A program made the position numbers and the translations under genes. The notes beneath the pieces were generated by a model. The model was given only the letters and a program-made list of their open reading frames with translations. It had not been told where the DNA came from and did not search any database. This document shows positions 5,386 to 64,000 of a stretch of DNA of 64,000 bases, one piece after another. Source of the stretch: Krischvirus LF73P4; sequence record OZ035795.1. One strand, given 5' to 3'. The first letter of the stretch is position 1, and each line of letters opens with the position of its first letter.

Positions 5386-6072
5386 ATGAAACTGACTAAA
5401 GAAACCATTGCTACCCTGAAAAACTTTTCCGCTATTAACCCAGGTATCATCCTGAAAAAAGGAAACGTCCTAATCACCAAAAACATGACAAACGTTGTAT
5501 ATGGTGAAGCGACTCTGAATCAAGAACTGGAACACGAAATCGGGATCTATGATCTTAACTCTTTCCTGGGCATTCTGAATCTGGTGGGCGATGAAGCAGA
5601 TATTACGGTTGATAACCGCACCGGAAACATTCGTGTGTCTAATGATCGTCTGAAAATTAATTATCCTGGTGCTAGTGCTGCTGCTATCGTATCACCGAAA
5701 GGCCGAGTTACTCCACCTGCAAGCGATGTAGATTACGAACTGAGCAACGACGATCTGAAACAGCTTATGAAAATGAGCAATCAGCTTAAAGTGGATCGCC
5801 TTGAATTTCTACCGATTGATGGTCGTCTGATGATCAAAGGCTGGGAAGAGATTGACAAAAATAATCCTAATGAGATGTTTTGTCTTGATATGGGCGAATA
5901 TACCGGAACCGCAGACTTCCATTTCTTTATTCGTAAAGATAACATGAAACTGGTTGCTACTGACTTCGGCGATTACAAACTGAGCTTCACTCGCCGTAAG
6001 GCTGTATGGCTGGCAAGTGAAACCGTATCTTATATGATCGCGTGTGACCTTGACTCCAGCTACACCGACTAA
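5386..6072 (+). CDS. 45: sliding clamp gp45
   Basis: 228 aa, same length and clear similarity to T4 gp45 as recalled; followed by clamp loader genes. Confidence 0.9.
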   Translation: MKLTKETIATLKNFSAINPGIILKKGNVLITKNMTNVVYGEATLNQELEHEIGIYDLNSFLGILNLVGDEADITVDNRTGNIRVSNDRLKINYPGASAAAIVSPKGRVTPPASDVDYELSNDDLKQLMKMSNQLKVDRLEFLPIDGRLMIKGWEEIDKNNPNEMFCLDMGEYTGTADFHFFIRKDNMKLVATDFGDYKLSFTRRKAVWLASETVSYMIACDLDSSYTD

Positions 6073-6084
6073 TATAATGTTTGT

Positions 6085-6104
6085 GGGGAGTGTAAATACT
6101 CCCC
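6085..6104 (+). terminator. stem-loop GGGGAGT-GTAAAT-ACTCCCC followed by GTTTT (possible terminator or processing site)
   Basis: Perfect 7-bp inverted repeat just after gp45 stop. Confidence 0.35.
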
Positions 6105-8054: not shown

Positions 8055-8075
8055 GATACTGATGGGATAGGGGTA

Positions 8076-8104
8076 TTGACAAACTAAGTCGATTCCCCTA
8101 TAAT
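8076..8104 (+). promoter_or_regulatory. sigma70-type promoter TTGACA-17-TATAAT upstream of gene 43
   Basis: -35 at 8076-8081, -10 at 8099-8104. Confidence 0.5.
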
Positions 8105-8136: not shown

Positions 8137-10815
8137 ATGTATTTTCTGTCATGTGAGCGAGTGGGTGATAAGATCTACGAGCGTTATATTGATGATGCTG
8201 GACAAGAACAAGAGCGTTACGTTGAATATACGCCAACTTTATTTCATCATGCCGCGCCCGGTATGGTTACGAATTATAAAGATATCTATGGCAAGCCTTG
8301 CATTGCTAAAAAATTCCCATCTATGAACGAGGCCAACAAATGGCGTAAAAAGATGGGAGAAATGGGGCAGGAGGCACTAGGGATGGATGATTTTATCATC
8401 TCCTATCTGTCCGATACATATAAAGGCGAGATTCGATATGACCGAAATAAAATCCGTGTAGCCTGGGTTGATATTGAGGTCACTGCACCGGAATTTCCTA
8501 AACCAGAAGAAGCGAAATATCCTATCGATGCTATTACGCATTATGATTCCGTACATGATCGTTTCTTTGTATTTGATTTGAAAGGAAAAAACGGTGAAAT
8601 CTGGGAAGCAAGCAAGTCTATTCTTCGACCTGATATTGTAGAGCGCGTTGTTTATAACGTCTATGACACAGAAGATGAATTGCTGTTAGAATACATCCGA
8701 TTCTTTGAGGAAAACCGACCCGTTGGTTTCACTGGCTGGAACACAGAAACATTCGATATTCCATATATCATTAAACGTATCAGTAATAAGTTCGGAAGTA
8801 GAACCGCTAACCGTCTAAGCCCATGCGGTAAGATTAAATCCCGAATCTCGCAGGATGATTTTGGCAACGAGCGTGAAGCATTTACGATCATGGGGATCGA
8901 AAGCCTTGATTATATTGACCTGTACAAGAAATTTAGCTTTACGACTCAACCAACATATGCATTAGATTATGTTGCTGAATATGAGACCGGAATCGGTAAG
9001 GTTGATTATGATGGTCCGTTAAAGAAATTGCGTGATGACAACCATCAACTTTACATCGATTATAACATCGGCGACGTTGATCGTGTGCTGGCGATTGATA
9101 AAAAGCGTGGATTTATCGATCTTGTGTATAGTCTATGTTTCTATGCAAAGATTAAATTTAACCATGTTTATAACCCGATGAAAGTATGGGATGCTATTAT
9201 CTTCGGATCTCTGAAAGCAGAGGGTAAAGTAGTACCGGAAAATAAGATACAGCCTAAGCAGACTTATCCTGGCGCATTCGTAAAAGAACCTGTACCGAAT
9301 GCTTACCGTTGGATGATGAGCTTTGACTTAACAAGTCTGTACCCATCTATTATTCGACAGGTTAATATTTCTCCTGAAACAATCGCTGGATCTTTTGATG
9401 CTGCACCGATGCACGAGTATATCAATAAAACTGCACCACGTCCGAGTGATGAGTATTCTTGCTCGCCTAACGGATGGATGTATAGAAAAGATATTCACGG
9501 TATCGTACCGATTGAGATTAAAAAGGTATTCGATCAGCGTAAGCAGTACAAAAACATGATGTTGGCATGTGATCGCAATGCTGAACTCTGTAAAGCGATT
9601 CTACACGATGAAAATCATGTTTATGGGGGAACCATTAGCTATAGCGTTGAAGTGCGTCACGACTTCGATGAAGCGTTTAAATCGATGCTTTCTGAATTGA
9701 GCAAAGATGCCTTAGAGAAATTGCTGGAAGAATGTAAAGACGAGTCGATCTTGTGCAATACAAACCAGCTTTCTCGAAAAGTTTTGATCAACTCCCTTTA
9801 TGGTGCGTTGGGGAATCCTAAATTCCGTTTTTATGATCTCCGTAACGCTAGTGCGATCACACTGTTCGGTCAGCTTGCAATTCAGTGGATTGAGCGTAAG
9901 ATTAACGAATACTTAAACGAGCTTTGCGGAACGACTGATTTTGCATATGTTCGTTATTGTGATACTGACTCCGTTTATGTGCTGGTTAACAATGTTATTG
10001 ATAAGGTTGGCGGGGAAGACCGTTTCGACGATACCGAAAAACTTGTTGACTTCCTTGATAATTTCGGTAAACATCGAATGGAACCTATTATCGACAAGGG
10101 ATATCGCGAGTTATGCGAGTACATGAACAACTATGAGCACTTGATGTTTATGGACCGTGAGGCAATTGCTGGTCCTCCGTTGAAATCTGCGGGTATCGGT
10201 GGATTCTGGACTGGTAAAAAGCGTTATGCTCTTAATGTTTGGGATATGGAAGGAACGCGCTTTGCTGAACCTAAGCTAAAAATCATGGGCTTGGAAACGC
10301 AACGTAGCTCCACCCCTAAAGCATGTCAGAAATCACTGAAAGAATGTATTCGCCGTATGTTGCAGGAAGGTGAAGAGTCATTGCAGGAATACTACGGTAT
10401 TTTTGAGCAAGAATTTAGAAAACTTGACTATCTTGATGTTGCTGCGGTATCATCTGCAAACAACCTACAGAAATACAGCGATTCAAACGGGTATCCGATT
10501 AAGGGTTGTCCGTATGCGGTTAAGAGTGTATTGTGTTATAATCGTAATGCTCGAAAATTCGGACTAGACCCGATTCGTGAGGGTGAGAAGGTTATGATTG
10601 TACCGCTTAAAGACCGAAATCCGTTTGGAGAAATCTGTTTTGGTTGGTTGTCTGGTACTCGTATTCCACCAGAAATTGAATCAGAGGTGTTGAAGTGGTT
10701 GGACTGGCCTTTGTTGTTTAATAAGACTTTCGTCAAACCACTGGAGAACATTACCACGGCTGCAAAGCTGCAATATGAAAAAGTTGCTTCACTGACTGAC
10801 CTGTTTGACATTTAA
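8137..10815 (+). CDS. 43: DNA polymerase gp43 (family B, with 3'-5' exonuclease)
   Basis: 892 aa from ATG 8137 (AAGGAG upstream); motifs DIEV, SLYPS, YCDTDS; collinear with T4 gp43. Confidence 0.95.
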   Translation: MYFLSCERVGDKIYERYIDDAGQEQERYVEYTPTLFHHAAPGMVTNYKDIYGKPCIAKKFPSMNEANKWRKKMGEMGQEALGMDDFIISYLSDTYKGEIRYDRNKIRVAWVDIEVTAPEFPKPEEAKYPIDAITHYDSVHDRFFVFDLKGKNGEIWEASKSILRPDIVERVVYNVYDTEDELLLEYIRFFEENRPVGFTGWNTETFDIPYIIKRISNKFGSRTANRLSPCGKIKSRISQDDFGNEREAFTIMGIESLDYIDLYKKFSFTTQPTYALDYVAEYETGIGKVDYDGPLKKLRDDNHQLYIDYNIGDVDRVLAIDKKRGFIDLVYSLCFYAKIKFNHVYNPMKVWDAIIFGSLKAEGKVVPENKIQPKQTYPGAFVKEPVPNAYRWMMSFDLTSLYPSIIRQVNISPETIAGSFDAAPMHEYINKTAPRPSDEYSCSPNGWMYRKDIHGIVPIEIKKVFDQRKQYKNMMLACDRNAELCKAILHDENHVYGGTISYSVEVRHDFDEAFKSMLSELSKDALEKLLEECKDESILCNTNQLSRKVLINSLYGALGNPKFRFYDLRNASAITLFGQLAIQWIERKINEYLNELCGTTDFAYVRYCDTDSVYVLVNNVIDKVGGEDRFDDTEKLVDFLDNFGKHRMEPIIDKGYRELCEYMNNYEHLMFMDREAIAGPPLKSAGIGGFWTGKKRYALNVWDMEGTRFAEPKLKIMGLETQRSSTPKACQKSLKECIRRMLQEGEESLQEYYGIFEQEFRKLDYLDVAAVSSANNLQKYSDSNGYPIKGCPYAVKSVLCYNRNARKFGLDPIREGEKVMIVPLKDRNPFGEICFGWLSGTRIPPEIESEVLKWLDWPLLFNKTFVKPLENITTAAKLQYEKVASLTDLFDI

Positions 10816-10832
10816 GATAAAGTGTGTATAAT
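10805..10832 (+). promoter_or_regulatory. sigma70-type promoter TTGACA-16-TATAAT overlapping end of gene 43
   Basis: -35 at 10805-10810, -10 at 10827-10832; GGCGGGT/ACCCGCC hairpin at 10833-10859 downstream. Confidence 0.45.
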
Positions 10833-10876
10833 GGCGGGTGTTGGGTGACGATACCCGCCAATGTGAGAAATATATT

Positions 10877-17125: not shown

Positions 17126-17154
17126 TTGACACTAATCTATAATGGTTTTATTAT
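17126..17154 (+). promoter_or_regulatory. promoter candidate TTGACA-17-TATTAT
   Basis: -35 at 17126-17131, -10 at 17149-17154; abuts terminator hairpin. Confidence 0.35.
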
Positions 17155-17184
17155 GCCTCCCGTCGAAAGATTGGAGGCTTTTTT
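17155..17184 (+). terminator. rho-independent terminator whose 3' arm contains the SD of the next gene
   Basis: GCCTCC (17155-17160) / GGAGGC (17173-17178) hairpin + TTTTTT; ATG at 17188. Confidence 0.55.
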
Positions 17185-17187
17185 ATT

Positions 17188-17691
17188 ATGCAATTTACAC
17201 CAGAAGAACTTAACATCATTGATGAAGTGATGAACTCTAAAGAAAATATCGATATGTCGATCCTTAATGGATTGATCGAAAAGACTGAGCGGTTAGTGCA
17301 TCATGAAGCCTTGTATCGCGGTGTGAGCAAAAGAGAAGGCCGTAAGCTGGATACCTTAATTGTAGGTGATTCTTTCGTTGTAGAGCGTCCTATGAGCTTT
17401 ACGCCACTGAAATCAACAGCAGAGGACTTTGCAACCGATGTTTATGCAACAGGAAAGATTATTGCAATAAAACCTACCAAGCCTTGCATGAATTATTACG
17501 AACATGCTATTGACCGAGTGGTGTCTAAAGAGTATGACAATCCGACTACTCGACTGTCTTTGTATGCTATGTTGGCAGATGAGCGCGAGTGCATATACAA
17601 GACAGGGACGACCATGATCCTTGATGAGATCGAGGAAGTTTACGCGTGTAATGGCGAGCTGATAGAGATTTACAAATTTTCTTTAATTTAA
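17188..17691 (+). CDS. hypothetical protein (possible Mod-like ADP-ribosyltransferase)
   Basis: 167 aa; YRG, ST and ERE elements in the order of R-S-E ADP-ribosyltransferases; weak. Confidence 0.5.
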   Translation: MQFTPEELNIIDEVMNSKENIDMSILNGLIEKTERLVHHEALYRGVSKREGRKLDTLIVGDSFVVERPMSFTPLKSTAEDFATDVYATGKIIAIKPTKPCMNYYEHAIDRVVSKEYDNPTTRLSLYAMLADERECIYKTGTTMILDEIEEVYACNGELIEIYKFSLI

Positions 17692-23403: not shown

Positions 23404-23967
23404 ATGAAAAGTGCGAAATTTTGGAATACTGAAATTCAAGAGGAATTAAAACGAAGATTTGGACACACGGAAGGTGTTCTATATCACAAAACAAATAGTC
23501 CGTCTTTTAATGGTCTGCCAGAGGGATATTTCTACCAAGTCGGTGATAAAGTAAAAACAAAAAAGTTAAATTACGGTCATTTGGCAATAGATGTTTACAA
23601 TAAGGTTAAAAAGAGAACATCTACATATCTTGTACATAGAATTGTCTGGTTTCTTGAATATGGAACACAGGTTAAGGTAATAGACCACATAGACGGGAAT
23701 CCAGAAAACAACAATCCACCAAATTTACGGGAGGCAACACAACAACAAAACATGTACAATAAAAAGAAAATGGACGGGTGCACGAGCATATATAATGGTG
23801 TTACTCATCGCAAAGGATCTAGCAAAAGACCGTGGCAAGCACAAATAAGGATAAACGGATACAGAAAATACATAGGATCGTTTGCTACTCAGGAGGAAGC
23901 CGCTAGAGCATATGATGAATATGCAAAAATTCATCATGGGGAGTTTGCATCTTTAAATTTTAGTTGA
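23404..23967 (+). CDS. HNH homing endonuclease with AP2-type DNA-binding domain
   Basis: HRIVW...IDHIDGNPENN...NLR HNH motif and YRKYIGSFATQEEAARAYDEYA AP2-like segment. Confidence 0.8.
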   Translation: MKSAKFWNTEIQEELKRRFGHTEGVLYHKTNSPSFNGLPEGYFYQVGDKVKTKKLNYGHLAIDVYNKVKKRTSTYLVHRIVWFLEYGTQVKVIDHIDGNPENNNPPNLREATQQQNMYNKKKMDGCTSIYNGVTHRKGSSKRPWQAQIRINGYRKYIGSFATQEEAARAYDEYAKIHHGEFASLNFS

Positions 23968-23991
23968 CACACAAGGGAGATTCTCTATAAT
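23964..23991 (+). promoter_or_regulatory. sigma70-type promoter TTGACA-16-TATAAT with GGGAGA/TCTCCC inverted repeat
   Basis: -35 at 23964-23969, -10 at 23986-23991; T-run 24003-24011. Confidence 0.45.
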
Positions 23992-24025
23992 GGGAGTCTC
24001 CCTTTTCTTTTATGAGGATTTAACG

Positions 24026-24783: not shown

Positions 24784-25041
24784 ATGAGTCGAAGTTTTGA
24801 TTTTCTGATCGCCAAGTGTCATCGAGAAAAGAAATCGATGGACCTGTTTATGAAATGTTTGAGGTATGAATATGCACACCTTCGTAAACACAAAATTGAT
24901 CCGCAAGTTTCCTACGAAAACATCAAGAAATATGCGAAAGAAGTGATTGACAACGATTGCACCGTGACATATAATGCGTTTATTGATTTATGGGCGTGGG
25001 ATGTAATCTACGCAGAGATGGACAAAGAAGATTTTAATTAA
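24784..25041 (+). CDS. hypothetical protein
   Basis: 85-aa ORF. Confidence 0.45.
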   Translation: MSRSFDFLIAKCHREKKSMDLFMKCLRYEYAHLRKHKIDPQVSYENIKKYAKEVIDNDCTVTYNAFIDLWAWDVIYAEMDKEDFN

Positions 25042-25055
25042 GTGAGGATTATATT

Positions 25056-27164
25056 ATGAAAATGCATATCGATAATGAAGAAGTATTTGGCAGTGACCTG
25101 AGCGGTGCGGTTGATTTTTCACTGAAAGCAAGTAGCAAGGCTTTTATGGTGCTTTCTAAGAACACTTATCAATATTGTGAGCGTGCTTGCGTCCGTGAGT
25201 ATTCGTGCAATGCTACCGACACTCACAAAGAAGCCGGAACCTTAGATCGTCCGTTTGATATTCATTTACCGACTGCAATCGAACCGTATTTTTCTGTGCG
25301 TGATTATGGTACGGGTATTCCGTCTAAGAAAGAATTAGAACAACTGTTTACGGTTTACTTTGAATCAACAAAAGACCAGACTAATGATTATATCGGATCT
25401 TTTGGTTTAGGTGCGAAGTCTGCTTATAGCTATACTGACACCTTTACAATCGTAAACTACTACAATGGTCGCGCTTATGGCTTTACTGCATTTGTGCAAA
25501 ACTCTATGCCGAAAATGGTGCAGATTTTCGACGAACCGACCTATGAAGACAACGGTCTGAAAATCACTATTCCGGTGAAAGAAAAAGACATTCAGACATG
25601 GCATCGAGAAGCACAATTTGTACTTCGTCATTTTGGGGAACACAAACCTAATATCAATGCAATCGAAATTAATTATTTCCCTAGCTTTGATAATTATTAT
25701 GTTTGCAATGGGCGTGATAACGATTCCTATGTAGTATATGCAATCATGGGTAAGATCCAGTATCCGATCCCGTATGAATATGTTCGCGGAACATGGTTAG
25801 AAGCTGTAAACCGCCAGCACCAGACCATTTACATTAATTTTGATTTGGGTGATCTGGACCTGATGCCATCGCGCGAAGAAGTTCACTTGTCAATCGAGAC
25901 TAAAGCGAACATCGAAAAACGTATTGCAGAAATCAATGAAATGATGTTGGAAAAGGTTAAAGAAAAGATCGCCAACATTAAAACAGAGCGTAAACTTGCG
26001 CAATTTATGAGCGAGTATTCATCGACTCAACGCAATATTATTAGCAAGATGGGTAAGATCGGGCAGTGGGATGATCCGGTAGCAATCTATAATAAGTTTG
26101 TGAATGCGGGTAAAGATTCGCCTAGTGACGTAGAAGGTCAGGTGTATACTCTGTATCGTACTCGTCACACAATCAGTAAATTGCGCCCTGCTTTCGTTAG
26201 CAGTCAATACAACATTACGCATTTTGTATGGATGCATAAAGAAGATATTCTGTGTGTAATTGATGATACCGATAAACCGAAACTGCGTGCACTGACTCTT
26301 AACGGCATGGTCCAGGAATACGGAATCAATAAAAAGGTACTGGTGTTCCGTCAGCGCAACGAAAAACATATGGAGACTTTCGAGTACATCAAACAGTATT
26401 ATGATGAATCTGAAATGACCGTGATTAAGGTATCAGAGGCCGATGATCTGCGTGCTAAAGCAGTTAAACCGGAAAAGACCGAGCGTACACAACGTGAAGC
26501 GACTCCCAAGCTGCCTAACGTGTATATCATGGAAAAGATTGGTGACAGTTGGCATAAAACCAGCCATCACATGAAAGCGGCAGAGATTCGCGAGTTATCA
26601 GGCTTGCACATGTTCCGCGTAGGTGATGCATTCGAAAGCCGTAGTCGTAAATCGATCTATAGTGAAAATACATTACACACGGCGCTTGACTACTTCGGGG
26701 TAACAAAGTATATTATTACTCGAAACGAGACACAAAAATATCTCGTTGACGAACAATTGGAATGTGCGCTAGAATTTGTTCGCGGTAAGCTGGCTGGTCT
26801 GGCTAAGAAGGTTAAGACCAATCATCTGGGGTATGGCGAATATCTGGGTGTGATCACTATGTTGTTTCATGACGATGAACTAGAACGCTGTGTTCCAGAA
26901 TTTATTGACAGACTGTACGGTCGTCATTATAATAAAGAGGTTTCCAAGTTACTCCTTCGTACTCGTTGGATTATGGACGAAGAAACTAAAAAGATCTGTG
27001 ATGAAAAATTCACGGCAGCAAACGAACGAATTAAAGCAGTTTGTGCGAAGTTTAAAGAGAATAGCCCGTTACTGTATGATATTGTAGATAACTGGTATCG
27101 TATTCTGCATAACGACAAACGCGCACAAGACTTTATGAAACTGGTTAAGAATGTTAAATTTTAA
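25056..27164 (+). CDS. rIIA: rIIA lysis-inhibition/membrane integrity protein
   Basis: 702 aa; GHKL-like boxes (REYSCNATD, RDYGTGI, GSFGLGAKSA); adjacent to rIIB. Confidence 0.8.
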   Translation: MKMHIDNEEVFGSDLSGAVDFSLKASSKAFMVLSKNTYQYCERACVREYSCNATDTHKEAGTLDRPFDIHLPTAIEPYFSVRDYGTGIPSKKELEQLFTVYFESTKDQTNDYIGSFGLGAKSAYSYTDTFTIVNYYNGRAYGFTAFVQNSMPKMVQIFDEPTYEDNGLKITIPVKEKDIQTWHREAQFVLRHFGEHKPNINAIEINYFPSFDNYYVCNGRDNDSYVVYAIMGKIQYPIPYEYVRGTWLEAVNRQHQTIYINFDLGDLDLMPSREEVHLSIETKANIEKRIAEINEMMLEKVKEKIANIKTERKLAQFMSEYSSTQRNIISKMGKIGQWDDPVAIYNKFVNAGKDSPSDVEGQVYTLYRTRHTISKLRPAFVSSQYNITHFVWMHKEDILCVIDDTDKPKLRALTLNGMVQEYGINKKVLVFRQRNEKHMETFEYIKQYYDESEMTVIKVSEADDLRAKAVKPEKTERTQREATPKLPNVYIMEKIGDSWHKTSHHMKAAEIRELSGLHMFRVGDAFESRSRKSIYSENTLHTALDYFGVTKYIITRNETQKYLVDEQLECALEFVRGKLAGLAKKVKTNHLGYGEYLGVITMLFHDDELERCVPEFIDRLYGRHYNKEVSKLLLRTRWIMDEETKKICDEKFTAANERIKAVCAKFKENSPLLYDIVDNWYRILHNDKRAQDFMKLVKNVKF

Positions 27165-31361: not shown

Positions 31362-31388
31362 AAGCCGATCCTTGTGGTCGGCTTTTTT
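31362..31388 (+). terminator. rho-independent terminator
   Basis: AAGCCGATC / GGTCGGCTT hairpin followed by TTTTTT. Confidence 0.55.
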
Positions 31389-31402
31389 ATTTGAAAAGTT
31401 GT

Positions 31403-31431
31403 TTGACTTCCATAATCCAGCATTGCATAAT
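31403..31431 (+). promoter_or_regulatory. sigma70-type promoter TTGACT-17-CATAAT
   Basis: -35 at 31403-31408, -10 at 31426-31431. Confidence 0.45.
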
Positions 31432-31462
31432 ACACACAGTGAAACAAAAAGGAGATTCAAAA

Positions 31463-31669
31463 ATGAAAGTACGTTGCATTGAAACAGATCACATCAATTA
31501 TAGCTTTAGTGTTGGGTGTGATTATGATGTTGATGTATTCACGGACAATAGCGGAAACACATTTGATGTAGTTCATGGTGACTATATTTGGTTTTACTTT
31601 GACAAACAACAACTTACTGCAACCAAACGAAACGGTGATCCGGTAGCAAAATTTGAAATAATCGAATAA
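31463..31669 (+). CDS. hypothetical protein
   Basis: 68 aa; GGAG 8 nt upstream of ATG 31463. Confidence 0.45.
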   Translation: MKVRCIETDHINYSFSVGCDYDVDVFTDNSGNTFDVVHGDYIWFYFDKQQLTATKRNGDPVAKFEIIE

Positions 31670-31675
31670 AGTCTA

Positions 31676-31710
31676 TTGACACCAGAACAAGGGAGTAGTA
31701 ACATACTCCC
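31676..31710 (+). promoter_or_regulatory. repeated promoter + stem-loop cassette, copy 1 (TTGACA-17-TAACAT; GGGAGTA/TACTCCC)
   Basis: -35 at 31676-31681, -10 at 31699-31704, inverted repeat 31691-31710. Confidence 0.5.
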
Positions 31711-31735
31711 ATACCAAACAAAAGGAGAATCAAAG

Positions 31736-32008
31736 ATGAACAACGAAAACAGCAAGGTGTTAGCAATTGCCGATAAAGTAGGTTACTGGAAATGCTGGGA
31801 TGATATGGAGAAATTAGGCGGTCGCTATCTCGATAACTTAGAGTTGCATTATTGCCAAGCGCGTAATGCAGAAGTTGCGGGAGTAGCAATCGAAGATATT
31901 CCGTCTAAAGTCTTCGGATTCTCTAAAGATGATACTCTAGAATATGTTTTCAAGGCTGTTATGGATCAAGCATGGGAAGACGCAGAGACACGCGCTCTTG
32001 ATTGGTGA
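31736..32008 (+). CDS. hypothetical protein
   Basis: 90 aa; AGGAG upstream. Confidence 0.45.
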   Translation: MNNENSKVLAIADKVGYWKCWDDMEKLGGRYLDNLELHYCQARNAEVAGVAIEDIPSKVFGFSKDDTLEYVFKAVMDQAWEDAETRALDW

Positions 32009-32012
32009 TAAT

Positions 32013-32183
32013 ATGAACTGGTATAAAATTTGGAAAAATCAGGTGGAGGCTTATCTAGGGTATAAGCCCACCGACGAAGAATTACTTGAAGCAATGTACG
32101 AAGACGGAATAAATCCGAAAGTAGCCGCGCAAGAATACGCGGAATGGATGAAGGTCGAAGATAACATAAAGGGGAAACTATGA
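32013..32183 (+). CDS. hypothetical protein
   Basis: 56-aa ORF. Confidence 0.35.
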   Translation: MNWYKIWKNQVEAYLGYKPTDEELLEAMYEDGINPKVAAQEYAEWMKVEDNIKGKL

Positions 32184-32380
32184 AGAAAATGATTGCAATT
32201 GCTTTGCTGGCTAGTGCATGTACTGTAAATGCTAATACCGCAGCGATGGTCGCGGCTGTAACTGCCGCAAATGCTTCCGTTATGGCATCGCAAGAGGCAG
32301 CACGCCAGCAAGCACAACAAGAAGCCCAGCGAAAAGCGCATGAGGCGACGAAAAAATTTCACGAAAATAACAAAAATTAG
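32180..32380 (+). CDS. small exported protein (signal peptide; possible lipoprotein)
   Basis: MKKMIAIALLASAC N-terminus; Ala/Gln-rich helical remainder. Confidence 0.45.
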   Translation: MKKMIAIALLASACTVNANTAAMVAAVTAANASVMASQEAARQQAQQEAQRKAHEATKKFHENNKN

Positions 32381-32415
32381 TTGACTCCAAAGGTCATCGG
32401 TAGTATTATACTCCC
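32381..32415 (+). promoter_or_regulatory. repeated promoter + stem-loop cassette, degenerate copy 2 (TTGACT-17-TATTAT)
   Basis: -35 at 32381-32386, -10 at 32404-32409, imperfect repeat ending TACTCCC 32409-32415. Confidence 0.45.
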
Positions 32416-32442
32416 ATACCGAAACGAACTGGAGGAATTAAA

Positions 32443-32685
32443 ATGGTTAAAGTTAATGTTATCGAAGTTGCACTGTATGACGCTGGTATCTTCCTGAATG
32501 AAAAAGAAGCTGCCGTTCTCGATGAACTGAAAACTGTTTTTGTTCCTGTAGTAGAAGACGTAGAAGCAATCAAAATCGCTTCTCGTAAACTGTCCCGCGA
32601 AGCATTCGATATGATTGATCCGGTTTTCAAAGTTATGCACGAATGCGCGGTTATGATGACCGAAGAAGAAGCGAAAAATTTCTAA
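32443..32685 (+). CDS. hypothetical protein
   Basis: 80-aa ORF; GGAGGA upstream. Confidence 0.45.
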   Translation: MVKVNVIEVALYDAGIFLNEKEAAVLDELKTVFVPVVEDVEAIKIASRKLSREAFDMIDPVFKVMHECAVMMTEEEAKNF

Positions 32686-32692
32686 AAACTAG

Positions 32693-32727
32693 TTGACGTA
32701 AAGATAAGGGAGTAGTAACATACTCCC
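32693..32727 (+). promoter_or_regulatory. repeated promoter + stem-loop cassette, copy 3 (TTGACG-17-TAACAT)
   Basis: -35 at 32693-32698, -10 at 32716-32721, inverted repeat 32708-32727. Confidence 0.5.
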
Positions 32728-32750
32728 ATACCAAACGAAAGGAGAATCAC

Positions 32751-32963
32751 ATGAAATCTATCGAGCAAGTAGTAACAGAGTTTATGAGCTACGAAGGAAA
32801 CCGCATCTTTGGACGTTCTCAAGTTCGCGAGATCGTAGAAGAAGTTGCGGGAGAGTTTGCGGAATCTGGTCACGTTATCACGCAAGAACGTAAAGAAGAA
32901 GCAGTAAGCCAGATCATGGCTATGCAGAAAATGCGTATTAATGCACGAGCGGGTAAAAATTAA
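32751..32963 (+). CDS. hypothetical protein
   Basis: 70-aa ORF; GGAG upstream. Confidence 0.45.
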   Translation: MKSIEQVVTEFMSYEGNRIFGRSQVREIVEEVAGEFAESGHVITQERKEEAVSQIMAMQKMRINARAGKN

Positions 32964-32973
32964 AAAATAGTTG

Positions 32974-33008
32974 TTGACACAGGATTAAGGGAGTAGTAAG
33001 ATACTCCC
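32974..33008 (+). promoter_or_regulatory. repeated promoter + stem-loop cassette, copy 4 (TTGACA-17-TAAGAT)
   Basis: -35 at 32974-32979, -10 at 32997-33002, inverted repeat 32989-33008. Confidence 0.5.
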
Positions 33009-33036
33009 ATCAAGACAAAACATTGAGGAATATATT

Positions 33037-33795
33037 ATGAAAAACATTATCGCTGCTATCGTTCTTTCCGCTACTGCTTTCGGTGCTAATGCTGCGTCCT
33101 TTGATTGCGCTAAAGCTACTACCAAATCAGAGAAGTTTATTTGTGCTAATGAGTCTATCTCCGCACTGGACTCTAAACTTCATGAAGTGTATGTTAAGGC
33201 TGTTAAGATTGATCCGTCTCTGAAACAAGAGCAACGAAACTGGAATAAAACTGTTCGTGATACAATGATCAATATCGGGCAGATTCAGCCACTGGAGGCT
33301 GTATACAACGCTCAAATCCAAAACTTGATGAATGTATTACCTAAAGAAGAAACCGCGTCAGAAAGCGATTCAGAGACTTCTGCGAAGGTTGAAGAAGAAC
33401 AACCGAAACAGGAAGCAAAAGTGGTAGAAGAACCGAAGGTCGAAACTTTTACCTATCAATGCACCGTTCGTTATGAGTGGAGTATGAAAGATGGAATTTC
33501 CACAAAAATTAAAGAAGCGCCACTGTATGCCAAATATGGAAATCAACCAGGAGATCTTAAAGTAACCATTAAAAATGGGAAGATGGTTGATTTTGTATAC
33601 ATTGATGAATACAACGTACACAAAGCAAACGTACAAGAAACCGTTATGACTAAAGGCGGGTTTTATAAGAATGTTGGCAAGAAAGATCTATATGAATACT
33701 CCGTTTTCGAACCAAACGACGGAACTATTCGATTCGAAAAACGTCATCCTACATTCGGTGGCGCAATTGATGTAGATCAATACGTTTGCAAGTAA
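33037..33795 (+). CDS. exported protein with DUF1311/LprI-like N-terminal domain
   Basis: Signal peptide ending ANA; FDCAKATT..EKFIC..ESISALDSKL..Y motif; acidic/lysine linker. Confidence 0.55.
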   Translation: MKNIIAAIVLSATAFGANAASFDCAKATTKSEKFICANESISALDSKLHEVYVKAVKIDPSLKQEQRNWNKTVRDTMINIGQIQPLEAVYNAQIQNLMNVLPKEETASESDSETSAKVEEEQPKQEAKVVEEPKVETFTYQCTVRYEWSMKDGISTKIKEAPLYAKYGNQPGDLKVTIKNGKMVDFVYIDEYNVHKANVQETVMTKGGFYKNVGKKDLYEYSVFEPNDGTIRFEKRHPTFGGAIDVDQYVCK

Positions 33796-34094: not shown

Positions 34095-34117
34095 TTTGTT
34101 GACGTGAGGATTATATT

Positions 34118-34309
34118 ATGGTAATTTTTAATCGTGATGGTATTATAGTTCGACAGCATCCATTCCTTGAATACTATCAGGTTGAACAATGGGGATATGG
34201 AGATTGCAACCGCTCATACGGTCAAAGCTGGGGATACCGTACAGTTTTTGAATCAACTAATATTGACAAAGTACGACAGAAAGTTTTAGAACTTCTTAAC
34301 GATAAGTGA
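34118..34309 (+). CDS. hypothetical protein
   Basis: 63-aa ORF; GAGGA upstream. Confidence 0.4.
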   Translation: MVIFNRDGIIVRQHPFLEYYQVEQWGYGDCNRSYGQSWGYRTVFESTNIDKVRQKVLELLNDK

Positions 34310-34319
34310 GGATTACATC

Positions 34320-34688
34320 ATGGAAATTCAAAACAATTACGAAAAATGTGTTATTATCAATGATTTGCAACGTCAATTGCATCATTACGAAACCGATTAT
34401 AAAACAGCAACCAAAACCGGAAAGTTGAAAGTGTGGGAAGTATGGTATAACCGAAACTATCTGGGAAGTATCCACAAACTTGATCGCAGTGATGTTTATA
34501 CAATGCATGTAGGCGCTTGTGGTGAATCGGATGTAGCATCTAATTTCATGGAAGCACTTGCATTCTATGTAGAATATCTGGTAGACTATATCGAGTTGGA
34601 AGAGGAAGTGGTAGAATTGCTTCCTCCACCGGAAGAAGCGCCGGAAGCAACGATCCTGAAAGCATTAAAGAAAATCTTTGTTAAGTGA
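34320..34688 (+). CDS. hypothetical protein
   Basis: 122-aa ORF. Confidence 0.45.
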   Translation: MEIQNNYEKCVIINDLQRQLHHYETDYKTATKTGKLKVWEVWYNRNYLGSIHKLDRSDVYTMHVGACGESDVASNFMEALAFYVEYLVDYIELEEEVVELLPPPEEAPEATILKALKKIFVK

Positions 34689-40764: not shown

Positions 40765-42255
40765 TTAGAAAGTACCAAAATCAATTACCGCATTAAGCGG
40801 AACAGCGCCAACATCATCAGGAGTTGGTTTGTGTCCTTCGTGGTATAATTCAAATGTATCGGTGTCCTGAGTATTGTTGCGTGATTTAACGAAAATAATT
40901 TTAGAATCATGTGTGATGCCTAGTTTCTCGTGCGCTTTAATATCACTAACACGATGAATCATTGCTGTGCCATCTAAGCTATTAAGTCCAGCGTAGCAAT
41001 TATCACCATTATAGTTAGCTTTTGCGGTACGAACGCCGTTTGCAGCGGGAACTGTCAAAGCACCTCTCATGGTATCGCCAGTCACATTAACATAGCGAGC
41101 ATCAGCCAATTTACGGTGATCTACATAGTTCCATGCGGTCCATGATTCATTAGAACAAGAACGCCAGCACATCGGATGATCAATAGATTCAGGATAGTAT
41201 ACCTGAACAATTCGACGAGTACCGACCGCATCTTCTGGGCGATATACCATCAAAACGCCGTTATAATAGCTATCAGACGGTTTATTAGTACCTGATCCAG
41301 CATTTTCCACACGATAGATACCGCGATTAATAAGAGTGTTCCAATCAACGTTTCCAATGATTGTTGGATTTGCTACCATTGATTTTTTCTCAAAGTAGCT
41401 CAAACGAACCAATTCATTAGGACCAGCAGGATCGTTTGTCGCCAACATTCTAGGCGCTTGCAAGTTACCTTCCATAATATCACCAGCACGTTTAACCTGT
41501 GCATCATTGGTGACATTACCTAGTCCAACATCGGCTTTAGTCGGTTTATTGTTGGTGTGGTAGAATCTACCTGCCTTGCCATTAACAGAAATTGTCGGCT
41601 CGTTTTTGCTACTGAATGCCAAAGTATCAAGACTATTTCCAAAATAAATGGCATTAGAATCGAAAGCAATGAAACCACGATCCCGCGCAAGTATTTTCGA
41701 ATTAACATCAAGTTTAAATGTAGCCGTGTTTAAATTATACGTTCCCGTGAGAGTATCACCGCGACGAGACACCAAATCCAAATCATTGTTTGTCGGCTTA
41801 TTAACAGGACTATAGACGCGTTGACCAGTGTCTTTAATGGTTGTCCCTTCGATGGTCCCTTTAGTTTTAAAATCACCTGTGGTAGTGTCAATATAAGCCA
41901 TGATAACATCATCACGAGCATTAACAAAACCAATAGATTTCCACGAATGCAAACCCCAACTTACACCATCAAAGTTAGCCGCATCGCTCTTTCCTTTAAA
42001 GATCCCGTTCTTTTTGGTTTCTCCACCGGATGCGCTACCTACGCTTAAACCTTCCTCAAAATGGACCAGTTTCTGAAATGTACCACCCTCAGATGCACTA
42101 ACAGCATCAAAATCGGCAGCCGAAGGTTTATCAAAAGCGGTATAGATTTTATGACCTTTATAGAAAAGCTGATCACCCGCTGGCTGGATCGTCAAGTTTC
42201 CTTGCGTCCAAATGGGAGATCCGCCTACAGTAGATCCATGTTTCAAATCTGCCAT
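40765..42255 (-). CDS. 36: long tail fibre hinge/connector protein, gp36-like (enlarged)
   Basis: 496 aa; N-terminus MADLKHGSTVGGSPIWTQGN...PAGD resembles T4 gp36; directly upstream of gene 37. Confidence 0.6.
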   Translation of the reverse strand: MADLKHGSTVGGSPIWTQGNLTIQPAGDQLFYKGHKIYTAFDKPSAADFDAVSASEGGTFQKLVHFEEGLSVGSASGGETKKNGIFKGKSDAANFDGVSWGLHSWKSIGFVNARDDVIMAYIDTTTGDFKTKGTIEGTTIKDTGQRVYSPVNKPTNNDLDLVSRRGDTLTGTYNLNTATFKLDVNSKILARDRGFIAFDSNAIYFGNSLDTLAFSSKNEPTISVNGKAGRFYHTNNKPTKADVGLGNVTNDAQVKRAGDIMEGNLQAPRMLATNDPAGPNELVRLSYFEKKSMVANPTIIGNVDWNTLINRGIYRVENAGSGTNKPSDSYYNGVLMVYRPEDAVGTRRIVQVYYPESIDHPMCWRSCSNESWTAWNYVDHRKLADARYVNVTGDTMRGALTVPAANGVRTAKANYNGDNCYAGLNSLDGTAMIHRVSDIKAHEKLGITHDSKIIFVKSRNNTQDTDTFELYHEGHKPTPDDVGAVPLNAVIDFGTF

Positions 42256-42288
42256 AAAGTAACCTCAAAAATTAGTTATAGTTCCGAG

Positions 42289-42296
42289 TATTTATA
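42289..42296 (-). promoter_or_regulatory. T4-type late promoter box TATAAATA
   Basis: Exact TATAAATA on - strand, 33 nt upstream of gp36-like ATG. Confidence 0.55.
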
Positions 42297-42465
42297 GAAT
42301 GTTAACAAAATATCGCTTCGCGACGTGCCGTAGGCACTGACTACTTTTTAACCGAAACAAATTTTCTATTATTCTAAAGATCTTTCTTCGTTTTGGTTAT
42401 GTTTTAACCAATAACTATATTTTTATACAGTAATAAATAAAACGGGTACTATACGAGGACTTCTT

Positions 42466-42720
42466 ATGACAGAAGACATTTTGTTAAAACTCTATGATCG
42501 TCTGGATAACGAATTAGCAACATTGCGGGGTGAAGTTCTCTATTTGTCTAAATGCAATACAGATCTGCTTAAGCAGATTGCAGAAAGGGATGATCAAATA
42601 AAATCCCTTTCAGGTGCATTACGTGATCGCGACAAGGCATTAGAGATTTTACAGCGTGTTACCAATAAGGAAGAATTAAAAGACTTCTTACATGGTTATG
42701 CTCATGCCATCGATCTATAA
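42466..42720 (+). CDS. hypothetical coiled-coil protein
   Basis: 84 aa; GAGGA 6 nt upstream of ATG. Confidence 0.45.
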   Translation: MTEDILLKLYDRLDNELATLRGEVLYLSKCNTDLLKQIAERDDQIKSLSGALRDRDKALEILQRVTNKEELKDFLHGYAHAIDL

Positions 42721-42746
42721 TAAAAAAGCCCGTCAATGACGGGCTT
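42721..42746 (-). terminator. rho-independent terminator ending the gene 4 - gene 2 transcript
   Basis: AAGCCCGTC-aat-GACGGGCTT hairpin; on - strand followed by TTTTTTA. Confidence 0.6.
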
Positions 42747-42750
42747 AATG

Positions 42751-43572
42751 TTATGCATCCTTCCAAACTTTCCTTGCGTCGTATTTCTTGCCTTTTGACA
42801 TAAACTGATATGTAGGCATATAGATAATATTGCTCCAGTCTTTCGGGCTAATCTCAACAAGTTTTGTTTTAATGTGTCCCGGTAGATATGCTTTGATCAT
42901 GTGATCACTTCCACGCATACCTTTTACATCGCTCCATTTGATTTTTAAGCGTGTTTTATTGCTCAAGGTAGGAGTAGATGCATATTGCTTTAAAAGTGCC
43001 TCTAAAAACTGCTGACGGGCTTTAGGCGTTACATAGTGTAAGTTAAGACCCAGCATTACAGTATTACCCGCCTTTGTCTTAGAATCACCCAGACAAATGA
43101 TCAGCGGGAAAACATCCCAATATGGTAAAGTGTCTTTATACTTCGCATCATACATAAAGGTATAGATTCGCCCTACTTGCGGTTTTACAATCTGGTGTCC
43201 CTTTATTCCCGCTTTTATTGTTTTAGTAAACCACTCCTGTGATTTTTCTTTAGGACGACTCTTTGATACAGCACGCATAGACGCACGAAAATCATTAATC
43301 ATCATCATTGCGCGTTGCTGCTTATTGAGACCCTTTGCACCTTTCCCTTTTAGTTTTTCAACTTCTATTGCTGTTTTAATTTCGCTGGCATAACGAGACA
43401 TACTTTTAGTGAAAGTCGCATAGGCTATTCCCTTAGAATCTGCAAATGCTTTAGCTGTCATGCCTTTGGCTTTTGCTTTCGCAAATTCTACACCCAATTC
43501 GACCCACTGTTTAGACTTTCTTTTTTGGGGAGACGGCTTTTCGTCTTCTGTGATTATTTCAAATACGCTCAT
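42751..43572 (-). CDS. 2: DNA end protector protein gp2
   Basis: 273 aa, basic; size and position next to gene 4 as in T4. Confidence 0.65.
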   Translation of the reverse strand: MSVFEIITEDEKPSPQKRKSKQWVELGVEFAKAKAKGMTAKAFADSKGIAYATFTKSMSRYASEIKTAIEVEKLKGKGAKGLNKQQRAMMMINDFRASMRAVSKSRPKEKSQEWFTKTIKAGIKGHQIVKPQVGRIYTFMYDAKYKDTLPYWDVFPLIICLGDSKTKAGNTVMLGLNLHYVTPKARQQFLEALLKQYASTPTLSNKTRLKIKWSDVKGMRGSDHMIKAYLPGHIKTKLVEISPKDWSNIIYMPTYQFMSKGKKYDARKVWKDA

Positions 43573-43583
43573 AATATTATCCT

Positions 43584-44057
43584 CTATTTGTTAAGCCCTT
43601 TAAAGCCAAACACTTTCTTTAATGCATGTTCGGTGATGATCTTAAACTCCATGTTATGCTTTTGGCATAATTTCACGGCAGCTAACCATTTTTCAGTATT
43701 TTTTGTGTATGTCCATACTTCATGCATATATCGTTGCTTTGTCTTCGCGGTCATTCTTTTTGGCTTTTCCGGTGGCCTTGTCTCTTTAGCTGGTTTAACT
43801 TCCCATAAATGCTCCTTGCCATCATCAAACTTAACGTAAAAATCCATAAAGTATCTGTGTCTTTTTCCGTCTGTTGATGACTCATAAGGAATTACTACGG
43901 TCTCAGATCCCCATTTTGCAACTCTAGGATTGCGGTCTAGCCACTGCATGATCCATCTTTCCCAGCTTGAACGGTATGTGATCTTACGTATATCCCCTTT
44001 ATACTTTTCCTTATTCTCAGGAACATACTTGCCCTTATAAGTGTTAGATCCTCCCAT
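43584..44057 (-). CDS. 4: head completion protein gp4
   Basis: 157 aa; divergent from gene 53 as in T4. Confidence 0.65.
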   Translation of the reverse strand: MGGSNTYKGKYVPENKEKYKGDIRKITYRSSWERWIMQWLDRNPRVAKWGSETVVIPYESSTDGKRHRYFMDFYVKFDDGKEHLWEVKPAKETRPPEKPKRMTAKTKQRYMHEVWTYTKNTEKWLAAVKLCQKHNMEFKIITEHALKKVFGFKGLNK

Positions 44058-63182: not shown

Positions 63183-64000
63183 ATGTTCGGTTGGCACTAT
63201 AATTCGTCAATTAGAAGGTATATTGTATTGCTGGGTAATTTATTCTCCGGCGTACAAATTAAAAGGGTGCGTAGTGACGGTGAGCGTTTTATTAAAGTTC
63301 CTATCACCTACGCAAAGAAAGAAAAATTCATGATGAGTCTGGACAAATATAACAATATCTTAAGCGAGGAAGACGTAGCAAAGGTAGAAACTATTTTACC
63401 TCGTATGTGTCTTTCTTTGATTGATATGACATACGCCCAGAACTTTAAAACCAATATTGCAAATAAGACAGTACCAAAATATACAGCGGATGGAATCAGG
63501 AGCGTAACACAATATAATCCTGTACCATATAAGTTTACTTTCGAGTTAGGGATTTATACGCGTAACGAAGATGATATGTTTCAGATAATTGAACAGATTC
63601 TTCCTTACTTCCAGCCTCATTTTAACTGTAAGATTAAAGAACTACACGGTAATGATGTATGGATTGATCGAGATATTCAGGTCACAATTAGTTCTATTAC
63701 TCCAGATGAACAGGTAGGCGAAGATAAGTTTTCTCGTCGTCGTCTTGAGTGGACCATTATGTTTGAGTTCATCGGGTTTATCTATCCTCCAGCTACCGAC
63801 GTTAAGGGGGAAATCAGAACGATTTATCTTGATTTTCATGCTAATTCTCGTGAATTAAATCCTAGCGGTAATTTTGAATCAGTGGACCATGAAGTTGTTA
63901 AACGTGACGTCGAGCAAGAAGAATGGGATGGAACTGTCAAAGAATCATATTCTAGTGATATTCCAATACCAGTTGCACCGACTCCACCGGGTCCACGTAT
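63183..64000 (+). CDS. 15: tail sheath stabiliser/completion protein gp15 (3' end outside window)
   Basis: Collinear similarity to T4 gp15 as recalled (ETILPR, ILPYFQPHFN, PPGPR); runs to window edge. Confidence 0.85.
   Translation, partial: MFGWHYNSSIRRYIVLLGNLFSGVQIKRVRSDGERFIKVPITYAKKEKFMMSLDKYNNILSEEDVAKVETILPRMCLSLIDMTYAQNFKTNIANKTVPKYTADGIRSVTQYNPVPYKFTFELGIYTRNEDDMFQIIEQILPYFQPHFNCKIKELHGNDVWIDRDIQVTISSITPDEQVGEDKFSRRRLEWTIMFEFIGFIYPPATDVKGEIRTIYLDFHANSRELNPSGNFESVDHEVVKRDVEQEEWDGTVKESYSSDIPIPVAPTPPGPR

Follow-up and report, generated by a model that had tools for sequence, protein, structure and literature searches.

Composite elements of promoter and hairpin known as PeSLs ('promoter-early stem-loops') were described in phages RB49 and phi1 by Arbiol, Comeau, Kutateladze, Adamia & Krisch (2010, Genome Biol Evol 2:140; PMC2839356). 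The available text of that paper lists 51-52 elements and distinguishes five positions of the stem-loop relative to the promoter, including one that overlaps the -10 hexamer. It reports promoter activity of PeSLs in lacZ fusions (~13,000 Miller units), blocking of lacZ by the PeSL211/210 stem-loop (SLS) about equal to that of rrnB T1, and mini-circles detected by inverse PCR at PeSLs, with none for control genes. As far as that text goes, the experiments concerned PeSLs 193/192, 206/205 and 211/210, with circles of ORF192 and ORF210, and not copies with the GGGAGTA/TACTCCC arms considered below; the tested stems (GGGGAT..ATCCCC) lie between -35 and -10, whereas ours lie over the -10.

PeSL/PmSL elements of T4/PST and KVP40/nt-1 (Comeau, Arbiol & Krisch 2014, PMC4122927) represent the same composite promoter-terminator linker near indels; they differ in their consensus (TTTACW.. 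or TTGYVH..), in having stems usually 5' of the promoter, and in hosts and lineages. Nolan et al. (2006, Virol J 3:30; PMC1524935) had previously listed RB49 early promoters, among them homologues of those studied here and copies in the nrdB region (131514, 131739 and 132020); their account covers promoters only, and a stem-loop or a role in recombination is unmentioned.

PeSLs give a concrete molecular form to the 'linker' model that Botstein put forward for modular evolution in phages. As with morons, Botstein-Campbell linkers and integron cassettes, PeSL units are self-expressed accessory genes swapped at conserved boundaries, and a circular intermediate has been proposed for them as for integron cassettes. 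Morons, however, are not known to be mobilised through their regulatory sequences. An integron depends on an integrase together with attC/attI sites; PeSL exchange, in contrast, appears to use general homologous recombination, with no integrase or att sites known.

Promoter-hairpin elements between gene 52 and the tail-fibre genes

We analyzed 64,000 nucleotides of Krischvirus LF73P4 (OZ035795.1; hereafter the window), which derive from an RB49-like Krischvirus with 96-98% identity to other Krischvirus genomes, KMB43 among them. The repeat block studied here is the counterpart of RB49 ORF267-ORF262, 3' of gene 52. It lies in the hyperplastic region between gene 52 and the holin/tail-fibre genes, and its repeats stand directly 5' of ORFans. 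Very probably, these repeats are PeSLs of the subclass with the stem-loop over the -10, with the promoter, hairpin and recombination roles proposed for that family. PeSL cassettes have been known from RB49 and phi1 since 2010, and nothing here is new in kind. ORFan263.1, phi1-specific according to the available text of Arbiol et al. (PMC2839356), belongs to the same block.

The preliminary description had read four elements out of this block, each with TTGAC(A/G/T), a 17-nt spacer and a -10 hexamer, and all four were found in place on the + strand. Copy 1 (31676-31738) comprises the -35 hexamer TTGACA (31676-31681), the -10 hexamer TAACAT (31699-31704), hairpin arms at 31691-31697 and 31704-31710, a predicted +1 near A31711, the SD GGAG (31724-31727) and an ATG at 31736. 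The degenerate copy 2 (32381-32445) has TTGACT (32381-32386), TATTAT (32404-32409) and an ATG at 32443; it keeps the 3' arm TACTCCC (32409-32415), and its 5' arm is lost (ATCGGTA). Copy 3 (32693-32753) carries TTGACG (32693-32698), TAACAT (32716-32721), arms at 32708-32714 and 32721-32727, an SD and an ATG at 32751, while copy 4 (32974-33039) carries TTGACA (32974-32979), TAAGAT (32997-33002), arms at 32989-32995 and 33002-33008, and an ATG at 33037.

The -35/-10 spacer measures 17 nt in every copy, and all four hexamer pairs score 9-10 of 12, as near-consensus sigma-70 early promoters. A+T makes up 80-90% of the 20 nt 5' of each -35 (59% across the window), and the upstream gene's stop codon lies 4-8 nt 5' of the -35 or, in copy 2, abuts it. 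ACTCCC and a ribosome-binding site are common to all four, with GGAG or GAGG followed by ATG 29-34 nt past the -10. An ATACC 3' of the stem, attributed previously to the whole set, occurs in copies 1-3 only, with CCCATCAAGAC in its place in copy 4. Copies 1 and 3, so numbered by their order along the genome, were correctly singled out as nearly identical and as each preceding a different small ORF: a stretch of 44 nt (AAGGGAG...GAATCA) differs between them at a single A/G position, and overall they agree in 50/57 nt.

The inverted repeat GGGAGTA-N6-TACTCCC, at 31691-31710, 32708-32727 and 32989-33008, forms a 7-bp stem with a 6-nt loop in copies 1, 3 and 4 (RNA dG -11.9 kcal/mol, z -4.2 to -4.9), and most of the -10 falls inside the loop. 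The hairpin had been ascribed to all four elements; this holds for these three, whereas copy 2 has no stable hairpin over its -10 (dG -6.2 kcal/mol, z -0.8). Copy 2 is a degraded PeSL, resembling the 'degraded' half-PeSLs of Comeau et al. 2014 (PMC4122927). It is kept hairpin-less in every genome with the downstream gene c80, and the hairpin is thus dispensable for promoter maintenance. Judging by its sequence, copy 4 is a chimera of the upstream part of PeSL264/263 and the core of PeSL263/262, at a site without the ORF263 cassette.

A fifth composite element, 5' of the 68-aa ORF a68, had been missed. It is made up of a terminator and a promoter, both on the + strand. The terminator (31362-31391; AAGCCGATC..GGTCGGCTT with a T-run; dG -12.7, z -3.8) has, unlike the PeSL stems, the make-up of an intrinsic terminator; its counterpart is annotated in GEC-3S, G37-3 and Makalu_001, with a TransTerm match at RB49 159775-159793. 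The early promoter (TTGACT-17-CATAAT, 31403-31431) is followed by a leader, an SD and the ATG of a68, the whole spanning 31403-31465, and its RB49 homologue is the predicted early promoter Pe:159769.

All genes of the block lie on the + strand. The cassette gene a68 (31463-31669; phrog_9122, a PHROG without a function) is present in 11/21 genomes of the comparison below. It is followed by o266 (90 aa, 31736-32008), o265 (56 aa, 32013-32183) and b66 (66 aa, 32180-32380; N-terminus signal-peptide/lipoprotein-like), a trio spanning 31736-32380 with no promoter in between. Next come the cassette gene c80 (80 aa, 32443-32685), which is without family match, and o264 (70 aa, 32751-32963; function-less phrog_14966), found in 21/21 genomes. 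On the right, the variable block is anchored by the conserved o262 (252 aa, 33037-33795), with a signal peptide and an N-terminal LprI/DUF1311 domain (PF07007, E 1.4e-5), the sole informative Pfam or PHROGs match among the cassette genes; the seven small ORFs of the block have no Pfam match or only PHROGs of unknown function. The ORFs flanked by PeSLs show no similarity to one another.

The earlier comparison of these elements with RB49 PeSLs agrees feature by feature with the anatomy in the available text of Arbiol et al. (PMC2839356): an AT-rich tract with an upstream stop, near-consensus sigma-70 hexamers, a G-rich/C-rich stem-loop, an SD and an ATG, in the same genus and at the same locus (RB49 ORF267-262), in a hyperplastic region, 5' of ORFans and with indels bounded by the elements. 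Nothing essential separates the two. The RB49 homologues are the predicted early promoters Pe:158760, 158983, 159267 and 159769 (Nolan et al. 2006, PMC1524935), Pe:159267 corresponding to copy 3 and Pe:158760 to copy 4 (Additional file 3). The same authors state that mapped 5' ends are in accord with the RB49 consensus, which has C at -3 to -1 and T or C at -12. Promoters are annotated at the same sites in the GEC-3S record. The preliminary interpretation is thus supported, with a caveat as to novelty only; by homology, promoter, terminator and mini-circle functions would extend to the copies in the window.

Gene gain and loss among relatives

In the proposed mechanism, each element would provide a strong host sigma-70-type early promoter (AT-rich tract, TTGACN, 17-bp spacer, TANNAT, CCC at -3 to -1). 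Next come a short leader, a ribosome-binding site (GGAG) and the ATG with which a small accessory gene begins, so that every cassette would carry its own expression signals. We infer this promoter role of the window copies from their sequence and from tested or predicted homologues. The hairpin ends just 5' of the predicted start and would therefore form only in RNA reading through from upstream, where it may attenuate or terminate transcription or protect 3' ends, insulating the cassette; this is the weakest step of the explanation. Finally, the efficient homologous recombination of the phage would cross over between these near-identical direct repeats of 45-70 nt, 0.3-1 kb apart, so that intervening genes are deleted, inserted or swapped and a single chimeric PeSL is left. 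With self-contained cassettes exchanged at regulatory repeats, T4-like phages could sample accessory genes while their core transcription units stay undisturbed.

Building upon the suggestion that the repeats act as recombination substrates for cassette shuffling, we compared the region from ORF267 to ORF262 (block of ~2 kb) in the window and 20 relatives. These 21 genomes display 14 gene orders, and each pair of the cassettes a68, b66-c80 and ORF263 shows all four combinations of presence and absence. Gene-content breakpoints in the relatives lie inside or adjoin PeSLs, as had been anticipated: in five of the seven junction classes, both ends fall within PeSL elements, which cover ~20% of the block; one class has a PeSL at one side, and one has none. 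G37-3 carries the predicted copy 1 x copy 3 recombinant, with the crossover within the 5' arm. The junction of ECD7 joins the promoter at 31403 to copy 3, and that of UPWr_E1 joins copy 2 to copy 3. The promoter at 31403 and copy 1 delimit the a68 cassette, where the exchange took place at ATAC.C, directly 3' of the -10; in junction classes A and C, this promoter is one of the crossover partners. Two PeSLs enclose the ORF263 cassette, and two different junctions are seen where it is absent, which indicates at least two events. Comparative genomics hence shows PeSL-by-PeSL recombination and confirms that small genes are gained and lost at PeSLs. The original evidence, from two genomes, is extended to 21 genomes at this locus, with recurrent independent junctions and a natural copy 1 x copy 3 recombinant. 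Since the gene content of such blocks is unstable, this is useful for Krischvirus annotation or therapeutic use.

It is conceivable, though we consider it doubtful, that the elements are ordinary early promoters only, sharing a promoter, leader and SD consensus and descending from local copies. Indels ending at them would then reflect no more than the readiness of T4-type recombination to use any short homology and the removal, by selection, of junctions within genes; a 'mobile cassette' would over-read the data, and the hairpin would be a generic RNA 3'-end element. Junction enrichment in intergenic promoters is indeed partly expected from purifying selection alone, and two junction classes arose via non-PeSL microhomology: at 32170/32672 a PeSL adjoins the right side only, and 32172/32330 is an in-frame coding fusion at CGAAAA. 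Recombination outside PeSLs is allowed by Comeau et al. 2014 (PMC4122927), no recombinase is associated with PeSLs, and the hairpin-less copy 2 is still a junction partner in UPWr_E1. However, copies 1 and 3 are alike beyond the consensus, their 44-nt stretch including non-consensus spacer and leader. Both the share of junction classes with two PeSL ends and the inverse-PCR circles obtained from other PeSLs and not from control genes, as given in the available text of Arbiol et al. (PMC2839356), argue in the same direction. The difference from the PeSL interpretation is mostly one of emphasis.

For a copy 1 x copy 3 crossover, the predicted circle would measure 1,017 bp. The -10-loop alleles of copies 1 and 3 are identical within the genome in 4/10 genomes, against ~2 expected, and ten genomes are too few for a claim of concerted evolution between the two loops.

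Conservation of the hairpin arms and spread of the elements

The hairpin arms are identical in 46/64 instances while adjacent spacers vary, a sequence conservation far above the need of a purely structural constraint. Compensatory changes are found in TGGAGTA/TACTCCA (JK32) and GGGGGTA/TACCCCC (RB49 PeSL227/226), and a G.T intermediate exists. Double changes affect three arm pairs, a number equalled in only 2/500 shuffles, which shows that the arms are under selection for pairing. A U-tract 3' of the hairpin was seen in 0/64 instances; what comes directly 3' of the stems is ATACCAAAC or ATCAAGAC, and the tested PeSL211/210 stem is likewise without a U-run. Scanning the + strand, we found no PeSL stem that combines a GC-rich hairpin with a U-tract on the transcribed strand, and the terminator scan flagged PeSL stems on the non-coding strand only. 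TransTerm left the PeSL hairpin uncalled in RB49, and ARNOLD calls it a terminator in G2494. We therefore rejected a canonical intrinsic terminator on the coding strand. A known structured RNA was rejected as well, Rfam 15 giving just a spurious HOTAIR_2 match (E 0.17).

An alternative that we regard as unlikely takes GGGAGTA-N6-TACTCCC as a double-stranded DNA operator, at which a dimeric phage or host protein shuts off at least ten small early genes, the hairpin being incidental. Such a reading would fit arms that stay conserved 5' of at least ten unrelated genes while spacer and leader diverge, a site over the -10 (the classic position of a repressor), and the absence of the U-tract needed for intrinsic termination; a stem-specific DNA-binding protein is also speculated on in the available text of Arbiol et al. 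(PMC2839356). However, other PeSLs of the same genomes have the stems GGGGATCG/CGATCCCC, GCGGGGA/TCCCCGT and AGGGAGATTCTC/..., and the place of the stem with respect to the promoter varies among them, which points to structure rather than to one operator sequence. The compensatory double changes keep the pairing yet alter both half-sites, the RB49 promoter consensus, with its C residues from -3 to -1, accounts for CCC in the 3' arm, and no candidate regulator was identified. We likewise give little credence to a broader version, in which the palindrome is a sequence-specific site for a transcriptional regulator or a recombination-targeting protein and marks at least ten dispersed promoters of Krischvirus ORFans. 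If true, it would explain why identical arms stand beside diverging spacers and leaders and, through short-tract gene conversion between copies, why the two central -10 positions in the loop are hypervariable.

In the window, the inverted-repeat pattern has 4 matches in 64 kb (0.01 expected), the 25-nt core 2 (0 expected in window shuffles) and the promoter-frame pattern 5 (0.12 expected in window shuffles). That the repeats resemble each other by coincidence, or arose as a side effect when genes were duplicated in tandem, is therefore extremely improbable, with nothing beyond the shortness of the elements in its favour: 2-5 matches against 0-0.12 in shuffles reject chance or a low-complexity artefact, duplication is rejected as the source because the flanked ORFs are unrelated, and PeSL elements are conserved across 58 phage genomes.

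The fourth match to the inverted repeat is a related hairpin, GGGGAGT..ACTCCCC at 6085-6104, the only further relative of the subfamily in the remainder of the window. The preliminary description had staked its interpretation on copies beyond the block, and these were found at RB49 ORF228-225 and in IMG/VR contigs; the RB49 copies of the nrdB region fall outside the window. Subfamily copies precede other unrelated small genes elsewhere in Krischvirus genomes. In addition, the layout with the -10 as the loop recurs within the window at 23964-24012, where the stem is unrelated and a true T-run is present; to judge from these features, it is an independent recurrence of the PeSL design.

Promoter–hairpin elements of the variable block

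Each of the four plus-strand elements lies where the preliminary description placed it, with a TTGAC-type hexamer, a 17-nt spacer and a -10 box: copy 1 (31676; TTGACA, TAACAT), copy 2 (32381; TTGACT, TATTAT), copy 3 (32693; TTGACG, TAACAT) and copy 4 (32974; TTGACA, TAAGAT). A repeat search of the window assigned all four to one family. The inverted repeat said to be common to them, GGGAGTA-N6-TACTCCC, is present in copies 1, 3 and 4 but not in copy 2, the copy described as degenerate, which has lost the 5' arm and folds into no stable hairpin. Bases 1–5 of the -10 hexamer lie within the hairpin loop and its final T starts the 3' arm; the RNA folding energy of each of the three intact hairpins is -11.9 kcal/mol (z -4.2 to -4.9). 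When the motif was searched for in three formulations, 2, 5 and 4 matches were obtained, against 0, 0.12 and 0.01 expected from window shuffles. Copies 1 and 3 agree at 50 of 57 nt; within a 44-nt part of this match, one A/G change is the only mismatch, in line with the 43-nt near-identity reported earlier. The initial inventory was correct for these four elements but overlooked a fifth, composite one, in which an intrinsic terminator (31362-31391) is followed by a promoter (TTGACT-17-CATAAT, 31403-31431) preceding a 68-aa ORF (a68, 31463-31669).

The region is 93–97% identical to 58 genomes of Krischvirus (RB49-like T4-type) coliphages, with vB-Eco-KMB43 as the top match, and the block is the counterpart of RB49 ORF267-ORF262, directly downstream of gene 52 (topoisomerase II). 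Among its seven small plus-strand ORFs, no Pfam domain was found save LprI/DUF1311 in the 252-aa secreted ORF262 homologue; the others match only PHROGs without known function. Because the seven ORFs are mutually unrelated in sequence, including those flanking the repeats, we ruled out that the repeats are remnants of gene duplication. The ORF262 homologue (33037-33795) combines a signal peptide with an N-terminal LprI (DUF1311, lysozyme-inhibitor-like) domain, and the 66-aa ORF b66 (32180-32380) begins with a stretch resembling a signal peptide or a lipoprotein N-terminus (MKKMIAIALLASAC). Each of the two is possibly an accessory protein targeted to the envelope.

The RB49-type 'promoter-early stem-loop' cassettes (PeSLs) mentioned in the preliminary description do exist, the layout with the stem-loop over the -10 included. 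They were defined in RB49 and phi1 by Arbiol et al. 2010 (PMC2839356) as an AT-rich tract that includes the stop codon of the preceding gene, then a sigma-70 promoter close to consensus and a stem-loop, which may take any of five positions (one 'overlapping the -10 box'), and finally an SD and an ATG. RB49 and phi1 carry 51 and 52 of them, clustered in hyperplastic regions preceding ORFans. The same authors showed that PeSL206/205 is active as a promoter and that the PeSL211/210 stem-loop acts in a terminator-like way, found mini-circles by inverse PCR, and proposed that indels arise by PeSL x PeSL recombination; phi1 ORFan263.1, which they list as phi1-specific, lies in the same block as the window's elements (PMC2839356). 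At the RB49 homologues of these elements, early promoters Pe:158760, 158983, 159267 and 159769 had been predicted (Nolan et al. 2006, PMC1524935). The window elements are thus of the same class, in the very lineage in which it was defined. The observation is confirmed and its interpretation supported; as the element class was already in print, this is a rediscovery, to which we add confirmation across 21 genomes at this locus and evidence of compensatory stem evolution.

Gene content and junctions among 21 genomes

We extracted the same block from 20 relatives and mapped genes and promoters, giving 21 genomes with the window. Between ORF267 and ORF262 they show 14 distinct gene orders. For the cassettes a68, b66-c80 (c80, 32443-32685) and ORF263, every pair occurs in all four presence/absence combinations, a pattern pointing to recurrent events, or else to reticulate exchange, within 2 kb.

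Seven junction classes (A–G) were recognised. In class A, the a68 cassette, present in the window, lies between the 31403 promoter and copy 1; RB49-type genomes retain one chimeric promoter, with the switch at ATAC.C, directly 3' of the -10. Class B (G37-3), the product expected from the near-identity of copies 1 and 3, fuses these two copies directly, with loss of four genes and a crossover that maps to the 5' arm and -10. In class C (ECD7), the 31403 promoter is joined to the copy 3 leader and five genes are lost, and in class G (UPWr_E1) copy 2 is fused to copy 3. Class F concerns the copy 4 site, where many relatives have an additional ORF263 cassette with a PeSL of its own (TTGACAGGGGATCGGCGATCCCCTATACT), some also ORF263.1, and kaaroe an ORF263.1 homologue in place of the ORF263 cassette. 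Copy 4 in the window is chimeric, its crossover falling inside the -35; GEC-3S, pEJ01, 011D4 and AV108 also lack ORF263, with an upstream junction unlike the window's, and at least two events are therefore required. Class D, the absence of 32170-32672 from RB49, Phi1, JSE, pEJ01 and AV108, has its right end in the AT-rich tract, ~20 nt before the -35 of copy 3, and its left end outside any PeSL. Class E, the absence of 32172-32330 from 011D4 and E26, joins coding sequence in frame at CGAAAA microhomology and involves no PeSL. Overall, five of the seven classes are PeSL x PeSL, one is half so and one is non-PeSL, in support of the proposal that the repeats serve as recombination substrates at which gene content changes.

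A left breakpoint at GGTCGAA (~32165) is common to two different deletions among relatives (32160-32175 versus 32330-32345 or 32672-32690), namely the in-frame ORF265-b66 fusion (011D4, E26) and, in RB49-type genomes, the deletion that removes b66 and c80. Each of the two lies at microhomology of the CGAAAA type, marking the site as a non-PeSL hotspot.

Stem pairing and hairpin function

Across 64 instances, the arms read GGGAGTA/TACTCCC in 46, while the two central -10 (loop) positions (AC, AT, TT, AG or AA) and the spacer from -35 to stem vary. Two clean compensatory changes were found, TGGAGTA/TACTCCA (JK32) and GGGGGTA/TACCCCC (RB49 PeSL227/226), the latter with a G.T intermediate in an adjacent copy. 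Double changes affect three pairs, a number equalled in only 2 of 500 shuffles, and paired cells reach 94% versus 40–71% with partners slid. These sequence comparisons lend modest support to selection on stem pairing. The arm sequence itself is very strongly conserved, so that sequence-specific recognition is also conceivable; a protein site of this kind is a possible, if unsupported, reading of the stem.

What the hairpin does is the weakest link of our account. In RB49 promoters, positions -3 to -1 are preferentially C and position -12 is preferentially T or C, which fits 5'-end mapping (PMC1524935). The CCC that ends the 3' arm takes up -3 to -1, which puts +1 at the A directly downstream; RNA starting at the element's own promoter would therefore lack the hairpin, and only transcripts reading through from upstream would contain it. 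No instance examined has a U-tract after the stem, a consensus terminator scan flagged the hairpins on the non-coding strand only, and TransTerm left them uncalled in RB49; ARNOLD called the hairpin a terminator in G2494. Since the only PeSL stem examined by experiment (211/210) likewise has no U-run, the missing U-tract is compatible with the published attenuator role. As copy 2 illustrates, a promoter belonging to this family is able to persist and to recombine (class G) with no hairpin.

On the minus strand, the hairpins at 31691-31710 and 32708-32727 have T-rich tails (TTGTTCTGGT, TTATCTTTAC) and were picked out as resembling terminators; a block to antisense transcription is a possible role.

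Further elements and window order

The wider search for extra copies was productive: a 71-nt query found 4–9 sites per genome in 58 of 58 records, three same-subfamily copies precede ORF227, ORF226 and ORF225 near RB49 nrdB, and in IMG/VR contigs a subfamily element precedes three more unrelated ORFs. The RB49 copies mark a second hyperplastic region (131.4-132.0 kb, ORF228-225, nrdB-denA), outside the window.

PeSL-type elements with other stems lie within the window at 1259-1287, 6050-6104, 8067-8104 (element at 8076), 10805-10860, 17126-17190 and 23964, the first five belonging to other subclasses. The 1259 element has a stem GCGGGGA..TCCCCGT between -35 and -10; at 6085-6104, a stem GGGGAGT..ACTCCCC, related to GGGAGTA/TACTCCC, follows the -10 and precedes GTTTT; the 17126 element has a terminator-like hairpin and T-run between promoter and ATG. 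At 23964-24012 (TTGACA-16-TATAAT), the -10 hexamer is the exact loop of a 12-bp hairpin (AGGGAGATTCTC / GGGAGTCTCCCT), a design as in copies 1, 3 and 4 in unrelated sequence; as TTTTCTTTT (a T-run) follows the hairpin, this promoter sits inside a terminator of canonical form.

None of the 58 published Krischvirus genomes is collinear with the window, a discrepancy that reflects either a genuine 86-kb inversion isomer formed by inverted-repeat recombination or an assembly artefact; no published record spans the junction at 42302-42411. Here (context 40765-44057) the gp36 tail-fibre region gives way to the gp2/gp4/baseplate region: sequence up to 42411 corresponds to KMB43 ~149.2 kb, minus strand (upstream of gp36), and from 42302 to KMB43 63.3 kb, plus strand (in front of gp2, gp4 and baseplate genes). 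In KMB43 the 110-bp switch sequence occurs as two inverted copies, 149218-149327 and 63319-63426, which lie 86 kb apart and are 94.5% identical.

A translation-initiation context, TGAGGA(A/T)TATATTATG, recurs at 25039-25071, 33024-33052, 34105-34133 and 34303-34346 and is common to several unrelated small ORFs (three repeat families); a TTGAC hexamer at 34099 has an ATG merely 13 nt downstream.
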